From contig NW_015173122.1 in assembly GCF_001447785.1 (NCBI RefSeq), forward strand, positions 1,437,541-1,501,540: a DNA stretch of 64,000 bases, in the 5' to 3' direction. How positions within the stretch are numbered: the first letter of the stretch is position 1; every line of letters starts with the position of its first letter. The position numbers were made by a program, and so were the translations under genes. The DNA is from Gekko japonicus. Taxonomy: Eukaryota. Below are positions 17,001-54,290 of the stretch, in pieces. The notes beneath the pieces are model-generated. The model saw only the letters and a list, made by a program, of their open reading frames with translations. It searched no databases and was not told where the DNA came from.

Positions 17001-20000
17001 AATCAGCACCCCCAGGAAGCAGGCGCCCCCCAACAAAAAAAATCCTGGTTAAGGGGCTGCCTCCCTACAGCACCATGCCGAACAACATGTTCATATGAAC
17101 TTAGCCAGGAGGAGGTCCTGAAGTGGGAATCTGAGAGATGGGGGGGGGGAGAATGGGAGACCACCTTTAACCAAACCGCAGGGAAAGCAGAGAGACGTGT
17201 TACAGAAGTCTCTTTGCAGCAAGACACCTCCTGTCCCTGACTTCCTTGCTAGTCTTTCCAACAAAGAGACTGTCTGCCCTCTTTTGCTTGCTCCTTCTCT
17301 CAATCTTCCTTGAAGATTAATCTGGGACACAGCAAGTATCCCCTGCTCTCCCAAGAGAGGCCTCTGGGCAATGCAGAGAGTAGAACTGTTGGCCCTCTTC
17401 AGCAAAGAGTGTTGGAGGATTCCTGTCACCACCCTGAATAACATTATACTCTTCATATGCATGGACAGCATGTAAACAATACAGAAATGAAATACTCTTC
17501 TCCGCACGTGTAGTGTAGCAGGGACTGGATGAAGCCTGGGGAGACCTACATTCAAAAGCTCCTTAGTCATACACCTCACTGGGTGACTTTGAGCCAGGCA
17601 CACATACACGGAACGCTGTTGGGAGGATCAGGAACAGAGATCCCATGTGTGTCACCCTGAGCTCCTTGGAGAAAAACATTGTAGGCAAAACAGACAGGCA
17701 TGATGGAGAACAAGGAGGCAAGAGCCCACAGGTGGCAGAATGGACTTGCTGCATGCAGATTCCAGGACTATGTCCAAAAAAGTCATAGAAAACTCCCTGC
17801 AAATACAAAACTAGCATACCACGATTGTACCCCCCTCTACTTGCTTGCTGTCCTGGTTTTCTGTTTGCAGGGAGCTTTTTAACATAGGGGGTGTGTGTTC
17901 AAACATGTGACCATCCTTCTGTAGTCAAAGCGCTGCAGTCCATTCAACCTCCTCAGGGCTCTGCTACCTCCTTTCTATGAACGCCTGAACAAGTCCTAAG
18001 GCTCCCAATGTTGGAGTAACCCATCCAGGAGCCCTCGTTGCTTCCATGAGACTGTGCGGGCTGGATAAGAGTTCTTGTGCTGCTCCTTGCTGGCTAGCTT
18101 TAACACAGCACAACCAAACAGCCAGGCCGAGAAGCATCGGTCAGGATCCCAGAGCCCAGCCCTCCACCTCATTCCCAGCACATATTTTTGCCCTCACACC
18201 GGAAAGAAGCCTCAAACCTGAGCTGCCCCATCTTCTCCAGGCCCTCAGGACTGAGCCGGTCCCGAGAAAGGAGATTGCTCAGCTGCTGCTCCAAATTGCT
18301 GGCTTCACGAAGGACCTTCGTGAGCTCCTGCTGCTGTAGGCTCCGGACCTGCTGCTCCATCTCAGGGCTCAGAGGACTGGCCAGGAGGGGGATACAGAGA
18401 TAAGGCTCGGCTTGGTTCGGGTAGCCAGCAGGATAATAGGCACCTGGGAAAACCCCGTTGCTGGGACCCACTGGATACTGCAGTGAATATCCTGGGTAGG
18501 GGTAGGAGGAGGCCTGGCCCACGGGCCGCCCATAGTAGTAGGGGTTATCCGAGTTCTGGAACCTGTAGTAGGATGCCTGGGCCTGGCGGGTGTCACTCCG
18601 AGGCACAGGAGCCACCTCGTCATCCGTGTCTAGGAAGTGCAACTGGGTGGTCTGACTCTTCAGCGCTGGCTTCTGGTCTGGGTTATTAGGGTCCCAGAGT
18701 CGGCGGGCAGTGCCCCCTCGGCCCCTGCCCCGGGTCCCTTTGCTCCCACCTCCAAAGAGCAGCCTGGACCCTGTGTGGGGAGCCTCTGGAGAGCCAGCAC
18801 TACTAGAGGTAAAGTCCGTGTTAGCTGGGAGGACTAGGATGCCCCGGCCCCTCCCCGGGGGCTCCCTCCTCATGCCCCTCCCCTCTCCAGTCTCTGTGGA
18901 GTCACTCAAACTGGCTCCGGACAGCTTGCGCTTTTGCTGGTCCCCGTCCGTCATACACAGGAACTTCCTGTTTACGGCCCTGTCACCGTGCTGGGCTCCT
19001 TTGGTCTCCTTCCCATTGGTGGTCCTGGAAGCCCAGCTGTGCTCCGAGCACCGTTTGGTCTCTGAGTCCCTCCTGGGACCATGTGCCTCTGCCTCCGCAG
19101 TCCTGTCGTCATCAAAGGAGTCTGTGGAGGATGTAGAGAGCTGCTTCCGAGGATGAGGCCTTTCCTTTATCAGCTCCTGATGCCTCTTCCCCGCCTCTGC
19201 TTCCACCCGTACTCCATCTGTGCTGTTGTTGCTCCCAGCTGAACTGGTACTGCAGGTGCGGTATCGGTTCCGACGCTTGTCAGATCGCGAATAACGCTTC
19301 GGAGTGCTTAGCTTGCCATGGGCCGTATCCGAGCTACCTTTCCTGGCTTTGTCCGCTCGCTCGGCTCGCCTGCCTTTCTCCCCATGGGCAGGTTTGGTTC
19401 CCTCTTTGCTTAGGCTCCCTTCCCTCCCTTCTTGGGTTGCCTGATTTCTGCAGTTGTTATTGCGCTTTCCACTATCCCTTTCAGACTCTTCATCCCCCTC
19501 TCCCTTAATGGAAGGTTCCTTGGTAGCAGAGTGGCTGACGGCGGCCTCCTTGGGCAAGCTTTGCAGGCGTTTCCCAGGCTGGTAGATCTGCTGGTCAGGT
19601 TTCTTGACTCGCCTGACAATATTTGGACACGAGTCCTCAGGGGCATTCGTGTGGTCTTGAGGGGGTCCCATCCCAATGCCCTGTTCCGAAGGGCTGTTTG
19701 AATCCTGCTTGCTTCCTCCTTTTGGGCCTTGAGATTTGTGGGATGCCTCTTTGCTGGGAGTGGCAGAAGGGCCCCTGTCTTCAGCCACTCTGTCCTTGGC
19801 TTCTTCAGACCCGGAAGGCTCCTGCTTTTCTAAGACGTGCTTGTTACGCAGCCGGGAGAGGCCAGGTTTGTAGATTTCAAGGTCTGGGCGCCTATTGTCC
19901 TTGCGATGTCGGGGTTCCTTCCTGGTCTCTACAAAACAAAAAGCACATGCAAATGGTTGGTTGTACAGTGGACAAAGAAAAAGACCATGCAGAGGCAGAA

Positions 20001-23000
20001 CAGATTGGAAACTGGCAAGACATTACAAACACACATTTGCCTCTGAATGCATTCTTTATTTCATGATGGCTGCCCTATAGACCCTAAAGGACAAGAAATG
20101 GCAGCTGTTTGCACTTGGATTTCCTTCAGCTCTTTCCCACAAGGCTTAATTTGGGGGGTAAATCAGATATTGTGTATTGCTTTGAATCCTTTCAAGACAG
20201 AGAAGCCAACCAACAAATATCCCATATGTCTTTTAGGTCAATACAGCAAGACGTTTTCAGCTCCACAGATCTCTGCACAAGTAAAACTTCTGTGTTGTTT
20301 GAAAAGTCGCAAGCTGTAAGCCACCTCTTGAGCAGATCCCTGAAGAGGCAGCATATACATTTCCCCAAATAAATACAGATTCCTACACCAACCTAAGTCA
20401 GTCCAAGAACAGCCTTACTTGAATCTTGCTCCATTTCTACATCATCAAACACTTGATGATGCCCCAGACAACAAGAAGTAGAGCCTGCCAAGAGCCAAAG
20501 GCCAGGAAAGAGCCAGTCTGGGGCCTTCTGAGCTCCTTCTGCATGCCACAATTCCATGTAAATCCACAAGCTTGGCTCACAATTTTTCCATTTCATTGGT
20601 GAAACAACCAGGGATGTGTTTGCTGCTTGGACTCCCTCAAAGCTGGTGGCTGATTATTACTCTGAGGCTTGTTTTATGCAGACCTGTGAACAACAGGTGT
20701 CAAAAGTGTGATGCTGCCTATTTCTCCTTCTCAAGAAACCAAATGTATGCCTAGCTCTCCAGAACCACAGTGGCTGTGAACTGAACAGCCACTGCTTCTA
20801 CAGCCCCCCCCCCAATGTTTCTTGTTGGTTTCTCCCCACCCCTACATTTTATTTAATATTTTATCCTGCCCTTCCCTCTAAGAATTTCAAGACACACGTG
20901 GCTCTCCTTTCCCCATTTTATCCTCACAACCTACTGAGATAGGCTAGACTGAGAGTATGTGACCAGCCCGAGGGCACTAAAGCAAGCTTCACACCACAGC
21001 TGGGGTATCCCAGATACCACTGTAACGCTATACCACATCTGTCCAGAATCACTATGGCAGAGCTAGAACTGACCTTCCGCAGAAGAGAACATCCCAGCTG
21101 TGGCCAATACCTTCTGCTGGTTAAGCTCTGTGTGCCACTACCAACCCGCAGGATACAAGTAATGTCAGACACCTCCAACTGTTCTCAGCTCCCAGACATC
21201 AGAACACTGGGGGAAGCTGTGACCTTGGCAACAGAGCCCTGGCCATGGCAGAGTTCTGGAACAAACAAGGTGACTACTGGAACTAGTTTTGCTAGGGAAA
21301 GTTTCCTTAACTTCTGAGCAAGGCTTCAACGGAGCTAGAGGTCAGCCTCAAAACGTATTTTTAATGAATGTAAACAAGGGGTCCATTTAACTGTTACAGT
21401 AAACTGCAGTTACCAAGACTCAAATAGAAAACATGGTAAACTGTAACAAGCAAAGTACTTTTAAGAATATATAAAGTATCAACAAGTTACTCTACTTCCA
21501 AGGAGCAGCCTGCAAAGCCACCCAATTATTTTTAAAGCACTTATTGCTGAGACCCCCTCAAGGACCACCAGGCTGCTACACTAGCACATGGGGAGGGAGA
21601 AACCTGGGAGTTTTTCAGCCGCATATCTAGGATGGGGTGCAGCAAGCCATAGTTACTTGCTGGTGATGGGATACAGATGTTACTTGGGGTTCAGGATGTA
21701 TTTAGCATTTGAGGGAATTCTTCACCAAGGAGGCCACATACTGCAGAACTCAGAAAGAACACAGCTTAGAAACTGCAAGAGCAAAACTTCAAGGCCCACC
21801 TCCATACTAGAGTTACTGGCTTTGGGTAGACAAAGTATATCCAGAACAAAACTTTCTTGGTCTTAAAGGTGCAACTGGACTCTCAAACTTTGTTCTGCTC
21901 TATTTGTGGTAAGACAATATGGTTAGAGAAGAAGAGTTACGTTTGAGGAAATATTTCTACTGGATTGGCATCACTGAAAACACCTACAACCCAATGCAAG
22001 AGTTAAATGCACACTAAAATGTGTGGACTTCACACACATCTCTAGATCTTTATTGGCTAGTGGTCAAGAGTTCAAAATCAGAGGAGTTAGAGCCACGTTC
22101 ACTTTATACCCTTTGACACATCCTTCTCTTATCCTGTTTTTCCCAACAGCAAAATGAGAATTTATTACCAACATCCCAGGACTTTTGTGGGGGCAAAACA
22201 CAATAAAAGATCTTAAAAATAAACCACACCAACACAAACGTGTGTGTGCACTATGTCTTTTATATACCCGTGTAGCTGCATATATCACCAAAAAACTTTA
22301 TATATATAATGCATACAGCACTTCTATATGATGTGTACATTCTGAGAGAAGAAATACAACTAGAAATCACCAACCAATTCTACTTTTAAGAATATGAAAT
22401 ATTGCAGAAAAGATCATGTAACACAGTCCAGCATCTTCTCCCATACAGGGATCACCCTGTCCCAGGACTCCAATATGAGGTTAAGTTTCACGCCCCACGT
22501 CTCAGAGCATTAGATTTAAGGATTATGATAGTGTTATAAAGTAGATTCGATGGTTCTTGCATTGTGAAGTGACCCAAAGCGGCATATAAATGAAAACCAC
22601 AACAAGTTCTCCCTGTTTGACTATCGGAGCAAAGACAAAAAAACAGTTTCCATGATGTTTTGTGCTTTCATGCCAATAAAAGTTGTGTTTGTGTGTGTGG
22701 ACAAAAGCACAGCCTGGCAGTCCCAGAAACACTCGTTTAGGTTTTGCGGCCACAGTCCTACTGCTGGAAGAGAGAAAACGCGCGGTTTACGGAGCTCCAA
22801 AGGGGGCTTGTGACAGGGCGCAGCCAAACCAGCAGCCACCCTCAACTGAAAAGGCTAAAGTAGAAGAGAGGTATTGGGCCGCCAAATCTCCCAGTCCAGC
22901 ACCAGCGACGAAAGGCTCATAGTCGCTTCACGAGATGCTGCCTGGGCGGGCTCCGATTAAGGGGGATGATAAACGGCAGGCGCCCGCCCCGCTGTGTCCC

Positions 23001-23236
23001 CCCCCCCCTCCGGTGGAGTCTCGCCTCGCCACACCCCCGTCCCGCGCTAATAGAAGAGAGAAGCGGGATGAGCTCCGAGGAAAGAAGCAGGCCGCTCACA
23101 CGAGCACGGATGATCCCGACCCGCCCTCCCGGGCCTCACCTGGGCCGCCCCTCCCCAACGCCGCTTCCGCCGCCAGAATCCCCCTTCTCAACTCCGCAGC
23201 CGAAACACGGACCCTCTCCAGCTCCGTTGCCGCCAT
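1854..23236 (-). CDS. SMG6: SMG6 / EST1A nonsense-mediated decay endonuclease, exons 1-8 (3' part, including the PIN domain, lies left of the window)
   Basis: Exons 23140-23236, 18218-19928, 15858-16050, 12470-12580, 3770-3876, 2824-2902, 2153-2263, 1854-2048; all GT-AG and in phase. Motifs: EJC-binding RRPDLEIYKPG and KKPDQQIYQPGKR; 14-3-3-like domain QNVDQLLWKNAFYQVIE, WYLKAQHVAPKNGRPYNQLA, RRKLDAVYYYMRSLAASNP. Confidence 0.97.
2153..2263 (-). CDS. SMG6: SMG6 exon 7
   Basis: RRKLDAVYYYMRSLAASNPILTAKESLMSLFEEIKRK. Confidence 0.95.
2824..2902 (-). CDS. SMG6: SMG6 exon 6
   Basis: WYLKAQHVAPKNGRPYNQLALLAVYT. Confidence 0.95.
3770..3876 (-). CDS. SMG6: SMG6 exon 5
   Basis: VKYALISAQRSLICQGDICRYREQGSDTANYGKAR. 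Confidence 0.95.
4204..4486 (-). mobile_element. tRNA-derived SINE
   Basis: A-box TGGTGTAGTGG head and (TCT)n tail. Confidence 0.88.
4571..5670 (-). mobile_element. Internally deleted DIRS (tyrosine-recombinase) retrotransposon
   Basis: Inverted terminal repeats at about 4605-5020 and 5490-5670; 3' extension CAGTTACAGGTAAGCAACCTGTTTTT; Cys-rich gag N-terminus FKRCLRC...DGHSCCLRCLGE...CHHC...ARKNRAA (ORF 4961-5431). Confidence 0.82.
4717..4922 (+). mobile_element. hAT MITE (CAGTGTTCCCTCTAAG TIR) nested in the DIRS ITR
   Basis: 8-bp TSD CTCCACAG at 4709-4716 and 4923-4930. Confidence 0.9.
6358..6565 (-). mobile_element. hAT MITE, same family
   Basis: TIRs plus 8-bp TSD CTCACGGT. Confidence 0.9.
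6697..10000 (-). mobile_element. L2-clade LINE, near full-length, frameshifted
   Basis: APE motif NARSINNK...CVTETW; RT motifs NYRPVSNL, QSGFRPGH, LDLSAAFDT, GVPQG, YADD; C-terminal SRLDYCN; (TAAA)n tail near 6697. Confidence 0.92.
10577..11205 (+). mobile_element. tRNA-derived SINE split by a solo LTR
   Basis: SINE body 10577-10796 resumes at 11151 (GAGTAGTGAAGGGCGGG...). Confidence 0.85.
10797..11150 (+). mobile_element. Solo LTR (354 bp)
   Basis: TG...CA ends; TATAAAATAAA signal near 11072; 4-bp TSD CTTT/CTTC; cleanly interrupts a SINE. Confidence 0.72.
11508..11787 (-). mobile_element. tRNA-derived SINE
   Basis: Same family; head-to-head with the next copy. Confidence 0.88.
11926..12209 (+). 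mobile_element. tRNA-derived SINE
   Basis: CAGTTTGGTGGAGTGGTTAAG...GGTTTGATTCCCC (A and B boxes). Confidence 0.88.
12470..12580 (-). CDS. SMG6: SMG6 exon 4
   Basis: GTLFFDGLLQKLQVSYQFKLEDYMDGMAVRSKPLRKM. Confidence 0.95.
13430..13560 (-). mobile_element. CR1 LINE 3' end
   Basis: (ATTCTATG)n-type tail on the minus strand and TCTAGTCCAACCCC motif. Confidence 0.75.
13578..13931 (+). mobile_element. Sauria SINE (Squam1-type)
   Basis: CTGCCAACCTAGCAGTTCGAAAGC core; (ACCTTT)n tail; TSD TAGGGCATG. Confidence 0.9.
14469..14770 (+). mobile_element. tRNA-derived SINE with doubled 5' head
   Basis: TGGTGTAGTGGTTA occurs twice at the head. Confidence 0.85.
15007..15320 (+). mobile_element. tRNA-derived SINE with doubled 5' head
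   Basis: As above. Confidence 0.85.
15858..16050 (-). CDS. SMG6: SMG6 exon 3
   Basis: AEMLQLYEHCLLTDIEFADTQNVDQLLWKNAFYQVIEKFRQ. Confidence 0.95.
18218..19928 (-). CDS. SMG6: SMG6 exon 2 (large N-terminal exon)
   Basis: RKDNRRPDLEIYKPGLSRLRNK ... RRLWDPNNPDQKPAL ... LEKMGQLR; TTTGTAG acceptor. Confidence 0.95.
23140..23236 (-). CDS. SMG6: SMG6 exon 1 (coding part)
   Basis: MAATELERVRVSAAELRRGIL; GTGAGG donor; CpG-rich. Confidence 0.93.
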
Positions 23237-23520
23237 TTTACTTCCCGGCACTAGGGAAACGGACGGCGGCCGCGAAGGGCCAATCCCGTGCAAAGGAGCT
23301 TGGGAGTTTCTATAAGCACGCGCTGCGGCCCCACCCTTCTTTGGCGCTTCGCCGGAAGCGGAACAAAAGGCTATTGTGAAGGAGAGCCGGAGCCAGCCAT
23401 AGACGGCGAAAGCAGGCGTCAACGGGAACGCGCGGCCCGGCCTGGAAGCCCTTCTGCAAATAGCCGGGACTGTGGCATCTACGAAGCGGCGTAGAAGCCG
23501 AGCGAAGAACATGCATGCAT
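23225..23520 (-). promoter_or_regulatory. SMG6 CpG-island promoter
   Basis: CpG-rich; YY1-type AAAATGGCGGC over the start codon; ETS-type CCGGAAG near 23351. Confidence 0.7.
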
Positions 23521-23720
23521 GGATGGGTTGCTGCTGCGAGATTCGTCAGTAGTTCAGCAGCTCGAGACCCAAGTGTGCCGCATGACGGAGTGAGCTCCCG
23601 TCTCTAGTTCCAGTTCCTGCCAACCTAGCAGTTCGAAAGCAAGAAATTGCAAGTAGATAAATAGGTACCACTTCAGTGGGAAGGTAACAGCATTCCGTGC
23701 ACCTCAGCATAAATGCCGGC

Positions 23721-26047
23721 TGGGATGTACTAAAAGGAAGGACAGGATTGCCCATTGGAAACAATGGGAGACGCTGGAAGGCCCATTGGAAATACTGGGA
23801 GCCAGGAATGCAAATTGCCAATTGACTTCCATGGGCTCCATTGGAAAACATTAGAGTATAAGTAGAGTTCCAATAAAAATGCAGAATGGATTTTACATTA
23901 GGGTCTCTGGGCCCATAGACTACTCTGGGAATGGAATGAGAGACCACGGAGTGCAATGACAGCCCCTGGGAGCAACAGAAGTGTTCAGGCATTGGAATGA
24001 CAGGCCACAGAGTGGAATGACAGCCCCAGGGTGCAGCAGGAGTGTTCTGGAACTGGGATAACAAGACCAAGAGTGGATAGACAGCCCCAGGGTGGAGCAG
24101 GAGTGTTCTGGAACTGGGATGACAGGCCACAGAGTGGACAGACAGCCCCAGGGTGGAGCAGGAGTGTTCTGGAACTGGGATGACAACTCCAGGGTGGAGC
24201 AGGAGTGTTCTGGAACTGGGATGACAGGACCAAGAGTGGATAGACAGCCCCAGGGGGGAGCAGGAGTGTTCTGGAACTGGGATGACAGGCCACAGAGTGG
24301 ACAGACAGCCCCAGGGTGGACCAGGAGTGTTCAGGAACTGGGATAACAAGACCAAGAGTGGATAGACAGCCCCAGGGTGGAGCAGGAGTGTTCTGGAACT
24401 GGGATGACAGGCCACAGAGTGGACAGACAGCCCCAGGGTGGAGCAGGACTGTTCATGGACTGGGATGACAGGCCACAGAGTGGAATGACAGCCCCAGGGT
24501 GGACCAGGAGTGTTCAGGAACTAGGACGACAGGCCACGGAGGGCATGACAGCCCCAGGATGCTGCAGGAGTGTTCTGGAACTGGGAACTCCGTGGCCTGT
24601 CATCCCTGTTACAGAACACTCCTGGTACACCCTGGGGCTGTCATTCCAATCCGTGGCCTGTCATTCCAGTTCCTGAACACTCCTGCTCCAACCTGGGGCT
24701 GTCATTCGACTCCTTGGCCTGTCATCCCAGTCCATGAACACTCCTGCTCCACCCTGGGGCTGTCATTGCACTCCGTGGCCTGTCATTCCAGTTCCTGAAC
24801 ACTCCTGGTCCACCCTGGGGCTGTCATTGCACTCCGTGGCCTGTCATTCCAGTTCCTGAACACTCCTGGTCCACCCTGGGGCTGTCATTGCACTCCGTGG
24901 CCTGTCATTCCAGTTCCTGAACACTCCTGGTCCACCCTGGGGCTGTCATTGCACTCCGTGGCCTGTCATTCCAGTTCCTGAACACTCCTGTTCCCCCCTG
25001 GGGCTGTCATTCCGCTCCGTGGCCTGTCAACCCAGTGGCTGAGCACTGCTGCTCCACCGTGGGGCTGTCATTCCATTCCGTAGCCTGTCATCCCAGTTCC
25101 AGAACTCTCCTGCTCCACCCTGGGGCTGTCTATCCACTCTTGGTCCTGTTATCCCAGTTACAGAACTCTCCTGCTCCACCCTGGGGCCGTCATTCCACTC
25201 CGTGGCCTGTCATCCTAGTTCCAGAACACTCCTGCTCCACCCTGGGGCTGTCATTCCATTCCGTAGCCTGTCATCCCAGTTCCAGAACACTTCTGCTCCA
25301 CCCAGGGGCCGTCATTCCACTCCGTGGCCTGTCATCCTAGTTCCAGAACACTCCTGCTCCACCCTGGGGCTGTCATTCCATTCCGTAGCCTGTCATCCCA
25401 GTTCCAGAACACTTCTGCTCCACCCAGGGGCCGTCATTCCACTCCGTGGCCTGTCATCCTAGTTCCAGAACACTCCTGCTCCACCCTGGGGCTGTCATTC
25501 CATTCCGTAGCCTGTCATCCCAGTTCCAGAACACTTCTGCTCCACCCAGGGGCCGTCATTCCACTCCGTGGCCTGTCATCCTAGTTCCAGAACACTCCTG
25601 CTCCACCCTGGGGCTGTCATTCCATTCCGTAGCCTGTCATCCCAGTTCCAGAACACTTCTGCTCCACCCAGGGGCCGTCATTCCACTCCGTGGCCTGTCA
25701 TCCTAGTTCCAGAACACTCCTGCTCCACCCTGGGGCTGTCATTCCATTCCGTAGCCTGTCATCCCAGTTCCAGAACACTTCTGCTCCACCCAGGGGCCGT
25801 CATTCCACTCCGTGGCCTGTCATCCTAGTTCCAGAACACTCCTGCTCCACCCTGGGGCTGTCATTGCACTCCGTGGTCTCTCATACCATATTTCTATTGC
25901 AACTCTACTTGTACCCTAATGGTTTCCAATAGAGCCCATGCAAGTCAATTGGCATTCTTGGTTCCCATTATTTCCAATGGGCCTTCAAGTCTCTCCCATT
26001 GCTTCCAATGGGCAGTCCTGTCCTGTCCTTCCTTTTAGTACATTCCA
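23721..26047. mobile_element. Non-autonomous foldback DNA transposon with long TIRs and inverted 61-bp tandem arrays
   Basis: Termini TGGGATGTACTAAAAGGAAGGACAGG / CCTGTCCTTCCTTTTAGTACATTCCA; about 160-bp unique TIR; TSD TGCCGGC/TGCCAGC. Confidence 0.88.
23940..25880. repeat. 61-bp minisatellite in two head-to-head arrays (inversion point about 24586), with a 122-bp higher-order repeat
   Basis: Unit CACTCCGTGGCCTGTCATCCTAGTTCCAGAACACTCCTGCTCCACCCTGGGGCTGTCATTC; identical ORFs recur every 122 bp from 25202 to 25690. Confidence 0.95.
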
Positions 26048-26508
26048 TGCCAGCAACATGACCACGGAAATGTCTTCGGACAGCGCTGGCTCTTCGGCTT
26101 TGAAACGGAGATGACTCCTAGCTTTCGACTGGCTTTCGAGCAAGGGAACTGGCTTTTGAGCAAGGGAACCTTTACCTCCCGTCGCGGAACAGCAGGGAGC
26201 CTGGCTCCAGCATGTCCCTTGTTCCCCCTTCCCCCGGGGAGGGGGGAGAAGATCGAAGAGAGATTCTAACACAAAGCAGGCACATGAGTAATTTTTATTC
26301 ATTGAACAGGTGTTAAGGCAGCTGCACGAGGGACCCAGACCCTCAGAAGCACTGAACGTGAAGGAAAGAAAGGGACTTCTCCCCCCCACCCCCAGCTCTT
26401 CCAAGGGCAGAAGGTATAAGGCTCTAGCCCCCCTTAGGACTGCCAGACAACAACACTTCTTTCAAGCTTCCCTTCCTGATAAAAGGTGCAAATGAAGCCA
26501 GACTCCTT

Positions 26509-26678
26509 CTAGTCCATTTCCTCCCTTTCACAAAGGGTGCTCTCCCCAATCCTGCTCAGTCCTGGAACATGGGGCTCATATATCCATTTGGGGAAGACCC
26601 GCTTGTAGAGGGTCATCAGCACTGTGTCCTGGGACTTCAGCTGCCCGTCAAACTGGCATTTCATCAGGCCGTGGGTAC
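26509..26678 (-). CDS. TSR1: TSR1 exon 15 (last coding exon)
   Basis: [32 protein letters not shown]...EEMD*. Confidence 0.93.
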
Positions 26679-29600
26679 CTGGCAACAGAGGAGAGAAGTT
26701 ATAAACTGCCTGCCCAGTAACCCGGGGGTGGGGGGGAGAGATCTACTAGCCAGTTTGGTGTAGTGGTTAAGTGCGCGGACTCTAATCTGGGAGAACCGGG
26801 TTTGATTCCCCACTCCTCCGCTTGCACCTGACTGGATGACCTTGGGCAAGCCATAACTCTGGCACAGCTGTTCTTGAAAAAGAGCAGTTTCTGTCGAGCT
26901 CTCTCAGCCCCACCTGCCTCACAGGGTGTCTGTTGTGGGGAGGGGAAGGGAAAGGAGTTTGTAAGCCGTTCTGAGACACCTTTGGGTATTGAAGGGCAGG
27001 GTATAAATCCAATCTCCTCTTCTTCTTAAATCCACACCATTGGCCTCAATCCACTTACCCACAGGCTCTTTGATGTGCCCCCGCCGACCCCACTTGGTCC
27101 GGAGTGCTACTGGCTTAAACCACGACACGTCCTCTGTAGGCAGAGAGAAAAGAATGAGAGGGAAGCAGCTAACGCGCACATCACTAGGCACTGCCACGTG
27201 CCTGCCCCATTAGTGCATTCCAGAAGGCAGCTCTTCATGCCGTCCAGCTGCACAGGCTGTATACATGCCTGCATGAACAGAATCCGTTTCAGGGAGTAAC
27301 TTCATCCTTTCTGCAATCTACAGAGCCCCAGCACTTCTTCCAGAAAAGATAATAATGCTAAGAAATCTTGCTTTGTCATCAGCTTACCCAACCCCATAGG
27401 TACTCTCCCACCAGGACCCCACACTCCCGTGAACCACTGAAGGGTTGCATGAAGTTTCATTAGCATTATGCTAAAAGAACTGGCATTTTACTCCACAACT
27501 ACCTCTCAAAGGGGTGACAGGCTGGTGGGGGTGGATGGGGGTGGGGGGATGGATCTTGCTTCCACTGCTGCTTGAGGTCCATCAAGAGCAGCAAATGGTC
27601 GCACCCTGCCTGCTGACCAAAAGAGACTAAGACCTGTACCTCTGTTGAAGAACATGTAGCGCACAACAGCCATCTTCCTGTGGATCTTGAAAGGGTGGCC
27701 ACTGAGCACCACCCGCTTGAGGGTCACCCTGCTGGGGTCAACGCTGTGGAGAGAACCCGTGGCCAGGAGGTCATGTGATCCTAAGGAGAAAAACAGACGC
27801 TGCTAGAAAGTCATTTGACCAGCAGCAGGCTAGATCAGGGTGTTGCCTTTAGGTCCAGGTAGTCACCCTTTGTTCACTGCATGTGCAAGCTACTTTTTCG
27901 GCAGGCCCTTCGACATGGAAAGAGAGGTAGAACTAGCCAGCTACAATGCATGTTGTGAGTTCAAAAATTTCCCAGCCCAAATACGAAAGCAATTTTATAG
28001 AAGCTGAGGAATGATCAACTTTTTTGGCCCAAGGTACTGAAAATTGCAGTCTCTATCAGGTGAGAGTCTACGCCAGGGGAAAAAAAACTGATGGGGAGAG
28101 ACTGGTTGGATACACCTGGAAGCATGCCAAGTCACAGCAGCAAGATTTGCTGCCAGGGTCTCAGTTGGGTGGGTCCTGAGTGCCAAGCAAAATGGTTTGA
28201 TGTGCTGTTGCTGGCACAGACCAGGAGCCACCTAGTCCTCCTGTAGAAGATGCCAACACCACCAATAAAGGGAGGTACAAGCTTTGGTAACAAACAATGA
28301 CATGACAGACAGGCTTGTCTGGGGAGACTGTTCCACAGAATACCACCACTGAAAACACCCTGCTTTCTCTCACACACACACACACACACCCCACCAATGG
28401 ATCTGTTCAGTCATTAACAAAGGGAACACAGAGCTGAGTTCCACTGGACCACATAATGAGAAGGGAGGCTCCAGTAAAAGGCTCTCCTAGAAGTCTGCCA
28501 CAACCAGCAGCACAGTGATTACATTACACCCTCAAAAGAAGACCAGGGAGACACACTAGCTCCCCTGCACACACCCCTTTTTACTTCTTCAGCTGCCCCA
28601 TGAATTAATCGCAACTGGCCTCAGGTCATCTAGTACACTGGCCCCTCCACCATATGGGCTTTCAGTCCTCTGGCTTTGCAGCATGCTAAAGTCAGGAACG
28701 GTAATATCACCCTGTGGGAAAAGCCAAGCCTCAAATGTTCCTGACTCACCGTCACTCCTCTGCTTGAACAGCAACACGGAAGCTGGTGGGAAAGTGATGG
28801 GGCCATACATGGTAGCCATGGTGGGACCATCAGCTGGTAGAAACCGCACCAGCTTGTGCTTGGATGCTAAGGGAAGAAAATGACCTGTTTAGACCCTGCA
28901 GCCATCCTGCAAGCCGGAGCCCCCTTCTGAGAGCTTCAGGAAAGGGCTGTAAGAACGCTTGCACAGGTGGCCTTCAGTCAAACACACTGTGTTTGAGCGG
29001 CTTCTCCAGTGGCAGTGCAAACATGCCTTCAGCCACTGCCTTTGCTTCCAGACCATAATTCCTGACAGGCCAGCCTCCTATTCCTTTTTTTAAATTATTA
29101 TTATTATTATTGAAGTTTATATACATAATCTTACATTAAACCATTGTACAATCATTTTACCCCGCTCCCCCCTCCCTCCTTTATAGTATCTTCATATTTT
29201 TAACCATGTGCACAGATTCTTCATTCGTATTTGGATATTTGGATTGGCTTCCCCCCTTTCCACCCATTCCTTATATCCCACCCATTTATTTGTAATCTTT
29301 TGACATTTCTCCTCCCATGTCTCTTCAGTAGCCAGCCTCCTATTCCTGGAGCTGAAGTAGACCAAGCAGTCCGTTATGCCCTCAGACAGAGGTTCCCTCC
29401 TAGTCCTGCTACCCTATGACTAGAGATACCAAAGATCACGTCTGTGATCTTCGGCATTCTATGAGCTACAGGCCCTTTTATCACAGACACATTTCCCCTC
29501 CCTCCTAACTGCAGAGGCCTCCAACCAGAATCTTGGGCTACAGAGCAAAAGCTCCCCCACCTGAGCTGTGCTGGGAATAAAGTGGCGAGGTCTGGAAGCG

Positions 29601-32600
29601 GCGGAATCCACAATGAACGATCACCTCCTCCTTAGCCTGAACAGGCTCAGTGTAGCTTGCGAAGCGTCTGACCAGGAGATTCAGCACAGACATCTGCAAG
29701 TGGGAGGGAAAACCAGAAGGGAGCCTGAGCCACCAGCCAATTAGCACACTGGCCCAAACGCATACCTCTGCAGGGGAACCTCAGGTTACCTAAGGCTCGT
29801 CAGGATGCATCGGACAGGTTCAGACACTGCGGTGAAAACTCATCACTGGCTTCCCCCTCTCACGTGTAGAAAGGAGGCACAGTTTACCTCTCCATCCATG
29901 CCCCTCATCTCCCCAATTCACCTTTTGCTCATAAGGTAGCAGGACGTAGAGCACCAGAGGCAGCTGCTGTTGGAAACCCTCTGTTACGGAGACTGGAACA
30001 TTGCAAATGTGAAGCGTCACGTAGGTGCCAACCTGGGGAAAGGGCAGACAGGCAAAGGAGACAGGATGGCACCCGGGAAGGAAAGCTGCACTTAACTGCA
30101 GGAAGCAGCGAATACGGGGAAGGGAGGTAGTGTCTGTTTGAGAAGGTTTGCTGCCAACAGAGGAGGAGAAGTCAGAAAGTCTCTGCCCAGCAGCTGAAGG
30201 AAAAAACCCTCTTTTATTTCCCAAAGAAGTGGGTTTGATGTGTAAAGCGCCAGCCCAGGCACTTGGAGCCCTTCCCCTCCCTCTAAAAGATGCAAAGACA
30301 AGCACAGATGAGGAGGAGGCCCTGAAAGGTAGCACACCTCAAAAAGTTCTCTTCAAGTGCCTCATAGAACAAAAGGTTGATAATATGCTGAAGGCCCAAA
30401 GAGAGATTCTTTAACCTGAATTCTGCAGACGGGACATATTATGCCAGTTTACTTTTCCCATTCTGCATGACCTGCTCAGAGTTTCCTGGTCATGGGAGGA
30501 GCAAGGATTCCGCAGCCCCATCCCCTAGAAATCTCCTTCCACCTCTTCTCTGGCCCTCTGAGATTTCAGCAGGCATTGCACACAGGTGGCCAACCATATC
30601 TTTGTTACCAGTTGGTCAAGCAGGGAGCTGCATCCAAACTGAGCCGAATCCCTTTCCCCTCTTTTCAGCAAAGTGGTCAAGGCAGAACAACAGCTACCCT
30701 CTGTAGACCTGGGGAAGGGAAGGGACAGGTGTGCAATACAGCTGCAATGAGAAAGGAAGTGCCTACCGCCGCTCCATCCTCTTCCGCCTCCTTCAGCTGT
30801 CGGAAGACGTGCTTCCTGGTCTGGAAGAAATCCTGGAACTGGAAGATCCGGGCGTAGTCCCTGGGGAGATTCTCATTAGGGTCCCATGGGGATGTCCGGA
30901 AGCTTTTCAGTCCCCGGTATTTCTGGAAGCTGGAAGTCAGAGGGCATTAAGCTCATCCCATGCCTTACAGCACAATCTTGAAGCTCAGTCAACGAAAAAC
31001 TTGGATGTCAACTAAGCCCTACCTCAGTGTATCTCAATACTGTTGCAAACCTCATTTGCACAACACTGGTGTCACTCATATGCTGGGATCGAATCAGGAC
31101 AGTGTCAAGGGTGCGTCATGGAGCAGGGCTTCCAAGTGCTCCCCAGCCCCAGGCAGATCCCCAACATCAGCACTATATTACACCAGCAAGAACATCCCAG
31201 AAAGGGTCACGTGCAAGGAAAAAATCTTGTCGTCGTCATACCCCCCCCCCCGACCTTCAAGTATGAATGCATTTTAAGATATCAACTATGGCTGCACCCA
31301 ATCACAGTCCTACAAACCGCTACGCCAGCCTCAGCCAGGATACACTTTACTTATGTTTATTAGCTTCTATGACCAAGGGTCTTAAGCTCAATTATAAAAG
31401 ATGAATATGCAACATTAGCCTCATAATACGAACTTTACAATAAAAGTTTACAGTCGAAGTAATCAAATCTAAAAGATCTAAAATGTTAAAGCAGAAGTCA
31501 TTAATAAAACTATAATTGATTTAAATATTCATTTAAATCATAATAACTGGGTGCATACCAAATTCTGTTCCAGTTGGGCCAAGCCAGATTTTTGTCACTT
31601 TACAGATAAAACTATCATTAAAAATTTAGTAACAGAATAAGTGGTTTCAGGATTAGTATCTGCCAACAGATAGGGGACCACCCAGAGTTCAGTAGGTAAT
31701 CGGTATTTGGTATGAACTGGAGTGATCCTAATCGATCTAGGAATCGACCACTGATTACATAATAATAGAAGATGGCCGAGTGTTTCCACAGCTCCAGTCT
31801 CACAGTTACATAAGCGATCCGAGTATGGGACTTTAGAAAAGCGACCTGTTAACTCAGCAGTGGGAAAAGAGTTAAGCATAGCAAGAGTGAAAACACGTCT
31901 ATAACTAGGTATTTTTAGGGATCTAGTATATGGAGGAAGAGATTCCGGAGGAGGAATACCCAAGGCAAGAGTAGAACATACATGTCTTGCTCAAGCTAAA
32001 GTACTAGCCTGATCAAGATTAATCACCTTTATTCTGGTCTGCTTCAGGGCTTAGCCAGGATACATATGGCATGGGGATAGATCACTCTGGTGAGTGTCCT
32101 GCACACATGAAGCATGAACTGGGAAACATTGGTAACAGAGACCCCGCAGAAAGAGCACACTGTGCGTCAACACTACACATCTAACACTACTGCGCTTGAG
32201 ACCTTAAAGTAGTCCATCTCTTTTATTTTTTTTGTATTTTTTCGTGAGTGTGCATGCACCTGGAAGTCATGGTGACCTCTGGTGACTGACCCCTACTGGG
32301 GGCCTGGAGGATATTCAGAGAGGTGGCTGAATAAAGCCTGCCCTCACCTCCCAACTGCTGGTATTTCAATGATTCCAATTACTTGCCAGAGTCGACCCTG
32401 CTTAGCTTCTGAGATCTGACGAGATTGGGCTTGCCTGGGCTATCCAAGTCAGGAAAGTAGTCCATCTCAAGACACACTCACCTCACCCAATGGAGTGGGG
32501 GCAAGGACAATGCATCCTACACAGGTAAGAAAGGGAAGGGGGTCCCTGCTTCAACAAAGACTGCCACAACAGTTTGTCTTTGTCCTCCTCCATACCTAAT

Positions 32601-35600
32601 GTGTGTACTGCCTCAACACCCCCCCCCTCCATGAGGGCGCCGATCCCAGTGTCACAGGGAAGTAGCTACATCATCATACACCAGATGGCAGTCTCTGCCT
32701 GCCTGTCACAGCAGTGTTTGCATGCCACCCTCTGCTTGGTGAAGCAACCCGAGCTGCAGTGTTAGGAGAGTCTAGTAACAAATAAATATACACTGCAAAA
32801 ACCTTTTAGCAAACTAATCTATATATCTAATAGCCACGTCGCCCCCTGGTGTGCGGATACTTATTTCCGCACATCGGGGGCACCTGGGGGGGGGAGGGGG
32901 ATTTTTGTGCACACTTGGGATGGTCCCCAGGTGTGCACAAAAATCTTAAAACCTGAAAAAAAAATCGGGGGGAAACTGAAATCCCCCCAAAAGTCACAGA
33001 GCGTCCCCTGCGCATGCGCAGGGAACGCTCTGCGAACTGCCTTGGTTCGGGGGGGAGCGAGCGACCGGTGAGGCCCAGCGGCTGCAAGGAAGAGACTGCT
33101 GAGGCCCAGTGGCTGTAAGCCGCGCGGGCCTTGCTTCAGAGGGGGGGAAAAGAGAGAGATAGAGAGAGACTGGGGGGTGGGAGAGAACGGGGGGAAGAGA
33201 GAGACTGGGGGAGGCCGGCAAGCCGGGGGCGGTAGTTGAGGGGGGGTGCAGGAGACGGGGGAACCGACGGGAGGGGGGGAAGCTTACCTGCTTCTTCCAC
33301 CTCCGCTTGCTCTGTGTGGAGCTCCCCCGCGATTTTCGCGGGTCCCCTTTCTTGTGTGTTCTATTTATGGTCATTATTTAGTAAAGTGCATAGTGTATCA
33401 TTATTTCATCCTAGTCAGGTATAAATATTCATTACATTTAAAACACTGATGCAAAATTGTTTGGTAGTTAGGAATCTGTATGTATTGAATGTTATTGCTT
33501 ACTGAATGTAATGAATACTTATACCTGACTAGGATGAAATAATGATACACTATGCACTTTACTAAATGATGACCATAAATAGAACACATTAGTTTGCTAA
33601 AAGGTTTTTGCAGTGTATATTTATTTGTCACTAGGCCCTCTGCTTGGTAGCTTGCAGGAGGCTTGCTATGAGTTCCGGGGCAATCGCTATGCTTTCCGGT
33701 GCCTAGTTGGGAGGCCTCTGCCACCTACTTCCCCCCTCTGCAGAGTGGTCATGGGATACTGACTGCATCTCTTGCAACGTGCTCTTATGATTGGGTCTGC
33801 CCACTGTGTCAGCATTACTTATTTATTCAATTTTCATACCGCCCAATTCCTGGTAAACAGGGCTCAGGGCAGTGTACAACAATTGATAAAACAACTATCT
33901 CATATTAGTTAAAACATTAAGATTACAATAAAATTTCAGTATCAATCAGATGGCGATCAGACTTTCGATTATACTACCACCTTGCAGGTGGGAAGGGGTA
34001 AGTGTCAGCCGGACGGATGCCATCGCTGTCCTCAACCGGACGCCTGGCAGAACATCTCTGCTTTACAGGCCCTGCAGAACTGCGTCAAGTCCTGTAGGGC
34101 GTGGATGTTACTAGGCAGAGGGTTCCACCAGGTTGGGGCCAGGGCACTAAGAAGACAGCCAGATGTCAATCAATCAATCAATTTATTGTAGCAGTCAATG
34201 ACCAGCAGTACAGTACAGATTAAATTTTTTTAGCAGTGATAAAAAGAGATACGATTGAATCTTAGAAACATAATAAAATCATGCTGGCATATGGGATTTT
34301 CGATGCTTATAAACCTGAGCACAGAATTTAGCCACCTGACGAGTAGTCTGGTGATAATCAAGCTTGGTTTTATTTGATCTCCCAGGAAAGCTTTCTAGCA
34401 ACGGGCTAATACTTTCCAATCAGACCTCTGTAAAATTAGGACAGTTTAAAAAAAAAAACGTGTTCGATAGAATCAATTTCACCCAGGGAGCAAGAAAAGA
34501 GCCTTAAGGAATAAGGGATTGCTTTAAACCTCCCTTCCAGCACTGCCGAGGGCAAAGTCGAACTTCTGGCCAAACAGCCATATGTCTCTCGGGCCGGGGA
34601 CCACAAGTAAGTTCTTATCAGTGAAGCGTAGTGCATCCTACATCCACTTGCAGCACATCACCACAAACCATTCAAAGGAGGATGGGGAAGGAGCTCCCGT
34701 CCGCCAGGCTCTGCGCACCCAACAAGGGCTATCCTGGCTGCTTGATCAGGCATGATAAGACTTGCAAACGGCTGCAAGCTCTGTGCCCCCTTTGCAACTC
34801 CGCACCTTTCCCTTTCCAGAGGAAAGCAGTGCTCTTACCGGATCCTGGCTGCCACATCCTGGGGAGTATCCACTTCATCTGGAAACATCTCTTCCTGTCT
34901 CTCCCGCTGGTACTTCTCCAGCACCGCCTCCTCTTCCTCCATCTTCTCAACATCCTCTGGCAGCACCATGGACTCACACTCTTCATCCTCTGTAGCTGTC
35001 TCCTCCTCCTCGTCACTGCTGCTCCCATCCTGGGACACAAAAACAGTAACAGGGAGTGTACAGGGTCAGCTGGCACAGAATAGAGGGCCATCCCATGCTG
35101 ACGGCCAGGACAGAACTCCGGTCTCCTGCAAAGCCTCCCCTGTACTGCTGTGGCCTTTCCAAGGAAGGCTCTTCTGTGATGTCCCGCCACCACTTCGCTT
35201 TCTCTCAGGGCCCTTCCCCCAGTTGTGCTATCAATAGGAGTCATCTGCAGCACCCAGGGCAATGCCTCCTAGGCTTGGGGATGGTACCTAACCAAGCTAA
35301 CATCTGCCGCCTTCCCAGAGTTGGGAGCTTTGAGCGCTGGAAATTGAGTTTGTAGGCGTGGGTAAGCAAACCAAAATGATCTAGTGAACAGGATTCTCTA
35401 CCATTCTTTGCGGAACAATTGTATTTTGTGTGACCTTGCTGACTGCTTTGTCTTGTATGCTTTCTGATAGCTTCAATATAAGTCCAGTCTTGAGAAAGGA
35501 TTACCGAAAAGTTTGTGTAACCGGTACATCTTTGACTGTTTTATTTGTATCTTGGACTATAAATATACCTACAAGCAAGAATCTTGTGTTGATAATTTGT

Positions 35601-38600
35601 TCGGAAGCAGAAGGGGTCAGACGGCCGAACTGGGGGTGTTTTCCCTTTAAGAACGGCCTGGCAGAGAAACGGCATTTTTTTCTCCAGTGTTAAGTGAATG
35701 ACTGCCTTCCCAGAGCAGCACACTTGATTTGTGCCATGCCTCCAAGTTGGTTCGTCACAGGTCGTGCTTCTCCCTTGCTTTGTGCTCTCCTCGCCTCTAA
35801 AGCCCCCCCAGACAGCAATCGCAGCCACCTGACGACCTGCACACATTCTCGCCAGGCAGCCCTGAAACCAGCAGTTGTTTTCATCCACCAGTTCTGTTAC
35901 CTGGGAGATGGCCTCTTCCATAGATGTCTCTTCCTCCATCCCATTTGCCTCATCAAGCTCTTCGTCATCACTGCCGCTCTCACCTTCTCTCTCATCTACA
36001 ATCCAGGTAGCCTGGTAGGCAGAAGTGCCTTTGGGGACCCTCCTGGAGATCTTCTTGGTCTGCTTGAGGGATTCTAAAGGGGTATGGGGAAAGGCCAGTC
36101 AATATCAAACACAGAACACTCACCCATCAGGGCCAAGCCTCCTCTTTAACAGCAAAGAAGCAGAGCTAAGCCCTGGACCTACAGCATGGTAGGCTGCGTT
36201 CCCAAAAGGATGCAATACAAGTAGACATCCACAGACTTAAATGCCAGATCCAGAAGAATACTAATGCCTTGCATGGCACATGTATTGCTTCCACTTGCTA
36301 TCGGGAAGCCTTGGGGGAGAGTTGGGGGAGACACACACACAGACACCATGTCCCCAAATAGCACAGAGTTGGCCAAAACAGAAAAGGGAAGAGAACAGAG
36401 AAGGGTCATCCCTCCCAGCCACCCAGACTTCACCTGCTGCCTCACTCAGCTCTTCTTCGGTGGGCCAAGTCTGCTCTCCATCCATGGGATCAGGGACAAT
36501 CTCTGACTGCAGCGACTCCTGCTTGCTAGGATCAGCCCTCATTAAGACCTGCACATCTTCCTCCATCTCAGCCACTTTGCTGAAAGTGTTGTCCTAGGAA
36601 GCAAGAGACAGAAGCACCAGTGTTGCCACTCGTGGGCCAGAGGAAGGACTTTTCTAACTCACTGTTGGTGGCAGTTCTCCTCTGAACTTTCAGACACCTA
36701 ACTCCTCCCTCGGTCACAGCCTCCCAGCAAGGGAACAGAACCCACCCGTACCTGCACACCTTTGCCTCTTCTAGGTTGCCCTTTAGCAGCTCTCAGGTTC
36801 TGTCCAAATGGCTCTGGGGTGGCATCCACCTGGCTCATCTGAAAGTCCCCGTGGCCCACGATATGCACCAAACGGTTTACGTTCAGGCTCCGCCCTCTCA
36901 CGTAGCCAGACACTTTCAGAGTCCCCACCAAAGCACTGCCTGGCCCAGGAACAAATTCCACAGCTTCAGCCAGCAGGTGCGCTCGCCGGTCCCGGAATGC
37001 CAGGTGCCGCTGTTTCTGGGTGGCGAGGTGATGCAGCAGGAGCACAGACTCCTGCTCTGTGTTGAGGGGGAAGAGCTTGGCCTCGGGGAACCTCTTCTCA
37101 GTAATCTTCCTCAGTTTTTTCTGCAAGTCAATTTGCTTCTTCAGCGGTTGGTCAGCAAGACCTTGAACAGCAAGGCCTACAGGCAGCACAAAGGAGACAA
37201 GTTTGAGCCTTGACAAAGCAGCACTGAAGCCAAGGACACCTCGGTATGGCAGAAAATGCCCACAAAAGCTAACACTCTCACAGTGCTCCTTAGAAGTCCA
37301 CTACCTTCCCTTCTAATCATTCTGCATAAGACAACCAGTATAAAACAAGAACAGTCATGTTAGATCAGACCAAGTACTGCATGTAGCCTCTTGCTTTTAT
37401 TCCAGACGAGCCAAATTGGAAGTGCATAAACTGGTCTACTCTGTCTTCACTGTTTGGTGTTCAGAGCTATAGTGCCTCTGAATATGTTAGTTTTATTTAG
37501 CACTATTGGTGTAGAGCCAGCAATAGGCCTACTCCTCATAAAGGCCACTAACAAGTCTTTGGAGCTTTCCCAATTTGTCATAACTGCCCATCAAAAAGTC
37601 TACGCTGCAGGTGTTCTTCCTGGTCATCAAGGCTGACCCACCCTATTACATGCTACAAGCAATCCATGTTAACCAAAGCTCGCTAACCAATAAACTGGGA
37701 GGAGGGTTTTTTGGCTACACTCACCATAGCTGGGGAGCCCCTGTGCAAAGATGCAGGAAAGGCAGTAGTTGCCAACAGCATCCCAGCCTTCAAGTGGATC
37801 CAGCACAAAAAGAAGGGTGTCAGCGACTTTAGCGAGGTCCAGAACAGCAAAAAGGTTCCCTAGAGAAATAAAAAATGCACTAATGATTGAGCATACCCCA
37901 AGTATGTCTGTGAACAGCTGAAACGGTCTTTGAAGGCATCCTCACCTCTGTCAGCTACCACAAATTGCCATCGCAACTTAGATCGCGGGCACAGCAAGAC
38001 AAAACCCGGAAGACCCCTCTCGGCCTGGTGCACAACAGAAGCCTCGCTGCTCTGAAACTGCCGCAAGACACTTTGGCTGTCAACATTAGCGTGTAGTGGG
38101 ACCACAGCCACCAGGTGTGGTGGCGCATCCTTGTGGCCTAAGTTTCGCTTCTCTGCCAGCACCTGCGATCACAAGGAGAGAGAAAAAATGAGTCCTCTTC
38201 GCCCTTCCTCAAAGCAGCTTTAGCTCCCCTTGCCTTCTGTGCCCATGGCTAAGCTCACCGCCTCCTTGGACCGCTGACGGAGCTGCAGTGCCCGATGCTT
38301 GCGATCCAACTTGGCCAAGTTGCGGCGCTTTTGAGAGCTGAGAGTTTTGACAGACACCCCAACTAGGGAAGAAATAAAGCAGCTCAATACAGACTTATGC
38401 TGAACCAGAATATACATGTGCAGGCACACATTTGAAGACAGAAAATGCCATTTCAAAGCCATACAACTTTTCTGCCTTTTCCCCAAAAGGACTATTGAGA
38501 GACTTCACAGAACTACTGAACATGCTTGCATAACTGGGGCCCATGTCAGTCTGATGACCCTCTTCGTGAGTCTAAAAGCCCTTTACAAAACTTGATTGCA

Positions 38601-39799: not shown

Positions 39800-39960
39800 G
39801 CTTCGCTCACAGGCCTTGCCTACACTTCCGGGTCACGAACCGGAAGGAGCCGCTGAACGCGGCAGGTGGTCCCGCGGGCGGAATTTCCTAGCGGCTCAGG
39901 CCACCCCTTGGCTGCCTCTTCGTTCGCGCCCTGAAAAGCAGGTGGAGCGGGGCACTGAGT
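39800..39960 (-). promoter_or_regulatory. TSR1 CpG promoter with paired ETS/GABPA sites
   Basis: ACTTCCGG-gtcacga-ACCGGAAG at about 39824-39847, just upstream of the ATG. Confidence 0.65.
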
Positions 39961-40527
39961 GGCAGAGCGGCCTTATGTAGTCCGGCCAGACGGCCCCAGA
40001 AAGGCCACAAGCAGGGCAAGGAGGCCGAAGCTGAAGACTTTGGCAGCCCCGGCATGGACGCCTCGCCCTCACATCCCCTCGGTGTGTGTGCGGGGGTTGC
40101 CCTCCAACCTCTCTGCGCTGCCCCAGCTCCAACTGCCAGGTGGGACCTGTAGATCTCCCGAAATGATAACTGGTCTTCAGACTAGAGATCAGCTCCCTTG
40201 TAGAAGATTGCAGCTTCTGAAGGCAAACTTTATGGTATTCTAGTACCCCAGTGAGGTCCATCCACAGGTTGCACCCCCATATCTCCGGGAATTCCCTAAC
40301 CGGGAGTTGGCAACCTTACACACAGTCCTGCTCTCCTTTTGCTCCCCTCAGGTGGCTCCCTCTTTTCAATCTTGTTGCTGCTACTTCAGTCTAGAATTCC
40401 TTCACAGGAGATCTATACCATTTATGTTGAATTCCTCCTCAAACACCACCTTATCCATGAAGTCCCCTCATGAAATGAAACCTAACGATTCATGTAACAG
40501 AATTCATGCTCTCCCACCTCATGTGAC

Positions 40528-40731
40528 CAATGCTCCCTCTAAGCTGTGGAGTCTTGTGAGCAAAAATTCTACCTTGTGAGTTACTGGCATTAAAGAGAGC
40601 GAGTGATTTGGCTGCTGCATACATTAGTTTGCTCTGGAGCCCTCCTTCCTGAGCTAAGACAAAAATGTGTGAGCTGGGAGGCTAAAAAACTGTGAGCTAG
40701 CTCACACTAACGCAGCTTAGAGGGAACACTG
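40528..40731 (-). mobile_element. hAT MITE, same family
   Basis: TIRs plus TSD CATGTGAC/CATGTGAA. Confidence 0.88.
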
Positions 40732-40741
40732 CATGTGAAAC

Positions 40742-41685: not shown

Positions 41686-41881
41686 ATACAGGAATTTAAA
41701 GCTACCTCAGGCCAGTGAGAGCAGCCAGTATCTCCATTCACACCCGAGGACCTCCTTCACACATGTTTTAGATTCAGCATATGAGAGATGTCTCTGAAAA
41801 GCACTTGCACATTGGCACACCACAAAGAAAGAAATGGAATGAAGCCTTCAACACATGTTCACAGAATCCGTTTTCTTATCA

Positions 41882-41943
41882 CAGTGGCCAAACCATACCT
41901 GTTCTTCAATCAGTGGCCAAACCATACCTGTTCTTCAATCAGT
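41882..41943 (+). repeat. 29-bp tandem duplication
   Basis: CAGTGGCCAAACCATACCTGTTCTTCAAT x2. Confidence 0.9.
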
Positions 41944-43597: not shown

Positions 43598-43712
43598 CTA
43601 CCAGTGGAGACCAGAAGGAGGCGTCTTCTCATCCTTGTTGCTTTCCAGAGAGAAGGGTGGGATTCGGACATCGAAGTGAGAGCCATCGGGCCGTTCAAAG
43701 CGGAAAGTGCCC
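43598..43712 (-). CDS. POLDIP2: POLDIP2 exon 11
   Basis: GTFRFERPDGSHFDVRIPPFSLESNKDEKTPPSGLHW*. Confidence 0.95.
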
Positions 43713-52676: not shown

Positions 52677-52679
52677 CGA

Positions 52680-54189: not shown

Positions 54190-54290
54190 GTCTGCCACCC
54201 GGAAATGGGTCTCTCTCGCCTGTAGGTGATGCTCTTTCATCTTCGCCCAGGCACGATCATGTGACTCGCGGGGCAAGATGGCGGCCTCTC
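54190..54290 (+). promoter_or_regulatory. TMEM199 proximal promoter (ETS, M-box/CLEAR-like E-box, YY1)
   Basis: CCGGAAAT near 54199; TCATGTGAC at 54257-54265; CAAGATGGCGGC over the ATG. Confidence 0.6.

Follow-up and report, generated by a model that had tools for sequence, protein, structure and literature searches.

The window analysed here is the whole 64,000-nucleotide stretch of Gekko japonicus contig NW_015173122.1 from position 1,437,541 to 1,501,540 (G000:C13412), taken from an assembly of 2.49 Gb in 191,500 contigs. On its minus strand lie, in this order, SMG6, TSR1 and an ApaG-domain gene; beyond these comes a gene on the plus strand that resembles TMEM199. In human and mouse the serine racemase gene SRR lies head-to-head with SMG6 and tail-to-tail with TSR1; mammalian SRR starts on the SMG6 promoter side and a CpG promoter is common to both genes. 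The SRR enzyme forms D-serine, which serves as a signal in the mammalian brain. At the gecko locus SRR is absent, which we regard as practically certain. The SMG6 ATG (23236) and the TSR1 polyA signal (26294-26299) are 3.05 kb apart, with both genes on the minus strand, and a SINE together with a 2.3-kb foldback element occupies all but about 0.42 kb of the interval. An earlier note, made from the sequence alone, had reported SRR as missing here and had explained the roughly 3 kb by the promoter, a split SINE and the foldback element; dissection of the interval confirms this. The boundaries it had chosen, the SMG6 ATG and the TSR1 polyA signal, stand, apart from an offset of one base that puts the ATG at 23236. 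The features are as follows.

18172-20022, minus strand: open frame that contains the large second exon of SMG6, with a match to EST1A/SMG6 chain 4um2 (E 3.4e-08)
23140-23236, minus strand: first coding exon of SMG6, ATG at 23236-23234 and donor after 23140, from the sequence
23237-23544, no strand: CpG-island promoter of SMG6, 308 nt, GC 0.60-0.69, CpG o/e 0.91-1.05
23527-26183, no strand: stretch replaced by 47 nt in organism B, a second lizard species (795-nt contig of run X13), the empty SRR site
23545-23721, plus strand: 5' half of a SINE, presumably of Sauria-SINE type, 177 nt, 84-92% to the copies at 13630, 39134 and 59588
23713-23721, plus strand: left copy of the target site duplication (TSD) of the foldback element, 9 bp, 7/9 identical to the right copy
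23722-26046, no strand: non-coding foldback-type DNA element, 2325 nt, with terminal inverted repeats (TIRs) of about 170 nt
26047-26055, plus strand: right TSD copy, 9 bp, at the start of the SINE 3' half
26047-26177, plus strand: SINE 3' half, beginning with the right TSD copy, 131 nt, 79-83% to the SINE copies at 13630, 39134 and 59588
Between the SINE 3' half and the TSR1 polyA signal: spacer of 116 nt
26294-26299, minus strand: predicted TSR1 polyA signal AATAAA, from the sequence, with no difference in organism B
26509-39799, minus strand: span of the TSR1 coding sequence, to which tblastn aligns a named gecko TSR1 in 14 pieces between 39751 and 26512, putative start codon at 39799

A contig of RNA type from organism A (run X3) leaves its genome match at 23140, which is the donor of SMG6 exon 1, and continues elsewhere; raw RNA reads of run X22 lie over the same exon at 23114-23266. 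TSR1 is identified by its AARP2CN domain and by the TSR1 of Euleptes, which is 89% identical. The interval contains no N, the sole N run of the window being at 61368-61399. The promoter (23237-23544) is about 89% identical in organism B, and no SRR remnant was found in it with the SRR HMM described below. On the far side of TSR1 (39800-54400) there follow a minus-strand gene with its ApaG domain at 44319-44717 and a plus-strand gene from about 54280, which by their likeness are probably POLDIP2 and TMEM199. The human neighbour on this side is SGSM2, which places a synteny break beyond TSR1. Open frames resembling LINE-type reverse transcriptase were seen by eye at 7050-9406 (minus), 55148-55873 (plus) and 62448-63344 (minus).

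The foldback element sits within the SINE, the halves of which are contiguous apart from the 9-bp duplication and are 79-92% identical to the three uninterrupted copies of the window. Its ends show 83% inverted identity over 173 nt and enclose two opposed arrays of a 61-nt unit (23924-24586 and 24587-25888). The family is high-copy, with 2677 candidates in the genome of which 40 were scored, and a 9-bp TSD is found in five of five other two-ended copies (9/9, 8/9, 8/9, 7/9 and 7/9 identical). The copy at the locus has a degenerate TSD with seven of nine positions identical, not the intact one that had been described. In the two-ended copies that were seen the ends are conserved and the length varies between about 370 nt and 4.8 kb. 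In its long TIRs, internal tandem units, ends starting with G and 9-bp TSD the element is like foldback-type non-autonomous DNA transposons; candidate superfamilies are Mutator/Foldback or Merlin.

Contigs of read runs were compared on the two flanks of the interval, the repeat-filled centre lying outside the comparison. On both flanks, runs X1 and X2 of organism A agree with the assembly as far as the SINE. For organism B, a 795-nt contig of run X13 (depth 4.72, plus strand) places letters 12-529 on 23016-23526 and letters 577-794 on 26184-26393, leaving 47 nt in place of 2657 nt of the window, with neither SINE nor foldback element. The reading of the two flank alignments as one contig rests on their equal length, depth and strand and on their complementary record coordinates, and it is the only contig seen on both flanks in this organism. 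A loose end at 26184 occurs in two further runs of organism B, X18 (2780-nt contig) and X14 (1413-nt contig), the latter contig being spliced at the last TSR1 intron. Reckoned from contig coordinates, the SMG6 ATG and the TSR1 polyA of organism B are about 0.46 kb apart, whereas the coding sequence of an SRR of 337 aa takes up at least 1011 nt. Since organism B is free of both insertions and yet has no room for SRR, the gene was gone before either of them arrived, which agrees with the earlier claim that the foldback insertion did not itself delete SRR. The SINE and the foldback element are passengers, later than the short interval.

The spliced TSR1 contig of run X14, which matches the window at 26184-26679, extends 440 nt beyond 26184, to about the donor of SMG6 exon 1, and the SMG6 contig of RNA type from organism A (run X3) reaches into the SINE (23140-23585). 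Such RNA-type contigs over the SMG6 promoter give a hint of TSR1 read-through, a contig being no proof of one transcript. A look-up of RNA records for the promoter came back empty. In 3% of one raw RNA run there was no read of either strand at 23267-23521, a sample too thin to judge a divergent transcript.

Queries for SRR were obtained by scanning metagenome contigs with a short degenerate motif, which led to an animal-type SRR (L025, 293 bits to human SRR) and from there to vertebrate SRRs. An HMM of 97 vertebrate SRR proteins gave a best domain of -2.6 bits (iE 34) in the six frames of the window and at best -1.5 bits once 70 kb of flanking sequence was added to it (134 kb in all); as a control, paralog exons in control loci were recovered at up to 37.5 bits. 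The earlier impression that no SRR-like open frame or exon remnant is present is thus borne out in all six frames. With tblastn of 120 proteins from the SRR search, the best E-value on the window was 0.04 and none of the best 25 matches lay in the interval.

The tBLASTn search of the assembly that had been proposed as a check was run with turtle, emu and echidna SRR, and it returned paralogs or chance matches only. Turtle SRR gave three matches, all of them paralog exons (best 30.9 bits, 42-53% identity), emu SRR two (best 32.2 bits) and echidna SRR four, all paralogs. The best matches of the three queries (30-32 bits) are on contig C10712, and the remaining ones either fall on the serine dehydratase-like locus C5677 or are no better than chance; the second emu match (C5530, E 1.1) contains a stop and was judged chance. 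A 70-aa SRR-specific piece gave five matches with stops (E of at least 1.4), likewise judged chance, and the degenerate SRR-motif pattern matched five times with one mismatch, against once in a reversed control, never in an SRR-like frame, and was dismissed as chance too. L025, which is of invertebrate type, had no match in the gecko genome, but as a weak query it shows little. The PALP profile found ten matches, namely CBS-like (C5524) and SDS/SDSL-like (C5677, C56227) loci and the gene on C10712, and the BhcB and PRK07048 profiles found four each at these same loci, for which the names CBS and SDS are presumed from likeness. Two CBS-like genes lie 70 kb apart on C5524, two serine dehydratase-like genes stand in opposite orientation on C5677, and a further exon is on C56227.

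To measure sensitivity, 45-aa pieces were taken from the SRR of shark, frog and coelacanth and scored against the turtle query; 21 of 21 reached 33-67 bits, above the best genome match; orthologous SRR exons present in the assembly should therefore have outranked the paralogs. The genome search scores only the best candidates, and its scope is this fragmented assembly of 191,500 contigs. Within that scope four SRR queries and three family profiles detected no SRR exon, which speaks against the relocation that had been offered as one option. A second option, loss, is supported by the lack of SRR both at the site and in the assembly, and loss of SRR in G. japonicus is in our judgement highly probable.

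The nearest SRR paralog in the gecko genome is the gene on C10712. Its coding exons, from 59487 to 14238, match a Paroedura protein mostly at 84-95% (91% for one exon), not every exon being recovered. Its orthologues, which among the matches listed include those of the geckos Paroedura, Eublepharis and Sphaerodactylus, are named 'L-threonine ammonia-lyase-like', and at least 10 of 120 listed rows bear the name 'SRR racemase' or 'serine racemase-like'. Genes of this type are conserved from fish to platypus, with no marsupial or placental among the 120 matches listed. In a quick tree of 61 rows they form a clade separate from vertebrate SRR (100% SH-aLRT), and a Polypterus entry named SRR is placed with the paralog type. 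As a relocated SRR the C10712 gene was rejected, the same gene being also present where true SRR exists (Xenopus, platypus, turtles).

The paralog shares with SRR the PALP fold and the PLP lysine motif (its PALP domain and K56 are kept). It differs in a C-terminal extension of its own, in an Asp at the column of Ser84, found in the gecko exon and in six of six aligned orthologues, and in the four-glycine phosphate loop (185-188), which is degenerate and absent from six of six aligned proteins of this type. According to the available part of PMC6424897, which also defines the four-glycine loop, S84 of human SRR is the re-face base and the S84D mutant loses racemization but keeps serine elimination. 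Since S84D loses racemization, the paralog is predicted to be at most an eliminase and would not replace the racemase. Among other D-serine genes, an exon of D-serine dehydratase is kept (C83:216322-216453); chicken has this enzyme, and mammals are reported to lack it (PMC8071972). The first exon of D-amino-acid oxidase is on C7816 and D-aspartate oxidase is on C5608, only exons having been examined.

The distribution of SRR was assessed with two homolog lists. The first comprises the best 120 of 7,996 matches, 97 of the 120 being vertebrate SRR; grouped by name, the matches listed include 49 bird, 23 amphibian, 15 mammal, 8 shark/ray and 2 turtle clusters, the remainder being tunicates, protists and unnamed rows. 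The second, made with turtle residues 1-60, where birds are diverged, comprises the best 120 of 1,781 matches (107 of them vertebrate SRR) and runs down to non-vertebrate proteins at its end; it is without most birds, and since both lists depend on shared words, a squamate SRR that evolves fast might have escaped them. Together they contain at least 172 distinct vertebrate SRR clusters. SRR is present in sharks, coelacanth, amphibians, turtles, birds and mammals by these lists and the tree, and for that reason a derived mammalian position, the third option of the earlier note, cannot explain a genome-wide absence. Chicken SRR presumably adjoins SMG6 and TSR1; an accession-neighbour look-up found no adjacent SRR-TSR1 pair in turtles or birds, and the papers searched yielded nothing on the position of SRR in outgroup reptiles.

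Among the 172 vertebrate SRR clusters listed none bears the name of a lizard, a snake, the tuatara, a crocodilian or a ray-finned fish, and the matches listed hold no caecilian or lungfish SRR either. The tree or the cluster names assign the unnamed vertebrate SRR rows to eutherians or frogs. In a control with the paralog query on the same database, 22 of 120 listed rows were squamate (19 species), a gecko-exon query favouring squamates. With no squamate among the 172 clusters listed but 19 squamate species for the paralog, the lists point to SRR having been lost squamate-wide; they also point to a separate loss in ray-finned fishes. That SRR has been lost in all squamates we consider likely.

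It is unlikely, by comparison, that SRR was lost only in geckos or in a subset of squamates and is kept, possibly in diverged form, by other lizards and snakes. Such a restricted loss would fit the fact that the DNA evidence comes from two species and the homolog evidence from the best 120 of 7,996 and the best 120 of 1,781 matches, and it would fit a squamate gene-loss screen (PMC13005343, 2026) in which, as far as its accessible part goes, 53 genes are unannotated in all 30 squamates and SRR is not one of them, appearing only in the list of all human genes. The same source, however, required an intact gene in five outgroups, alligator included, and if its alligator model is missing or of low quality, that by itself would exclude SRR from the screen; no crocodilian SRR is among the matches listed here. 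The omission may therefore have either cause, an annotated SRR in some squamate or the lack of an intact SRR in one of the five outgroups, and the count of no squamate SRR against 19 squamate species for the paralog tells against a restricted loss.

Somewhat less likely still is that SRR has moved to, or was always at, a different locus, one that is rich in GC and not captured by this short-read assembly. Assemblies are known to miss GC-rich genes (PMC13005343, in its accessible part), and the present one is in 191,500 contigs. Against this, no named gecko SRR protein is among the matches listed, though geckos do appear for the paralog, and the retrieved vertebrate SRRs contain no unnamed Logan row outside mammals and frogs. 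All of the SRR coding exons, of which we assume about seven, would also have to be missing while exons of a distant paralog are found; the position of SRR outside mammals, which is presumed, leaves this explanation some room. That SRR is hidden by a collapse of the assembly at the foldback repeat, or that the foldback insertion deleted it, is barely credible: although 61-nt units repeated in tandem and inverted make up 2 kb of the interval and the read comparison covered the flanks, the element is inside a SINE with contiguous halves and a 9-bp duplication, runs X1 and X2 match the assembly on either side as far as the SINE, and organism B, bridged by 47 nt without either insertion, already refutes both as the cause of the absence, including the collapsed segment that the earlier note had put forward as its own refutation.

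We therefore favour, as quite probable, one old and clean deletion that removed the whole of SRR, probably in the squamate ancestor, the gene being absent at the site in two lizard species. The site was only about 0.45 kb long before the insertion of the SINE and then of the foldback element. The deletion would have begun just behind the CpG promoter, which in mammals is shared with SMG6, and reached as far as the TSR1 polyA site. Both neighbours, which are essential, would have been left intact, and TSR1 would since then end a few hundred bases upstream of SMG6. The SINE would have inserted first and the foldback element second, in the G. japonicus lineage and after SRR had gone.

The consequence of such a deletion would be the lack of a dedicated serine racemase and a low level of endogenous D-serine, an effect on D-serine supply that we infer from the gene content. 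Glycine would then be the main co-agonist of the NMDA receptor, and the retained D-amino-acid oxidase and D-serine dehydratase would clear D-serine from food and gut microbes. Brains of fish, frog and chick reportedly contain little D-serine. The function of D-serine outside mammals is described as unclear, its forebrain co-agonist role resting on mammalian evidence, in the part of PMC8916719 available. If the deletion is as proposed, lizards and snakes are natural SRR knockouts, and an amniote radiation without SRR beside turtles and birds with it offers a comparative test of the need for D-serine in NMDA-dependent plasticity; the alternative in such a test is that D-serine is a mammalian emphasis and glycine suffices elsewhere.

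A wider reading, which we put forward tentatively and which may well fail, is that true SRR was lost in all lizards and snakes, independently in ray-finned fishes and perhaps in crocodilians, and that this went unnoticed as the Asp84 paralog is annotated 'SRR'. On that tentative reading, NMDA-receptor signalling would proceed with no D-serine synthesis in well over half of all vertebrate species. Annotation calls for caution, as many bird, fish and reptile annotations use the name 'SRR' for a different enzyme. A literature search, with subscription papers and the supplements of bioRxiv preprints outside its scope, brought up neither a report that reptiles have lost SRR nor a measurement of D-serine or of the enzyme in these animals, and 12 of the 19 supplementary files of PMC5901865 contain no mention of such a loss.

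As an event, the deletion of one dispensable enzyme is ordinary, and the loss of SRR is a new case of a known kind, the lineage-specific deletion of a single gene. It can be compared with the losses of IL34, PLAAT1 and SLC24A1 in the accessible part of PMC13005343: in each case the gene is gone between kept neighbours with neither remnant nor gap, and it is present in turtles, birds, mammals and frogs. It differs from the segmental losses described there in that the SRR deletion is one gene wide, with its neighbours about 0.45 kb apart, and SRR is outside the list given by that source. The closest functional counterpart is the Srr knockout mouse, which, in the available parts of PMC6770864 and PMC4021815, is viable with about 90% less forebrain D-serine and shows disturbed NMDA-receptor plasticity and skin-barrier changes; its viability makes a tolerated natural loss of SRR plausible. 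Both animals are without an SRR gene, but the gecko keeps the non-mammalian D-serine dehydratase (PMC8071972, as far as available), and its loss is a natural one that has been tolerated over evolutionary time.
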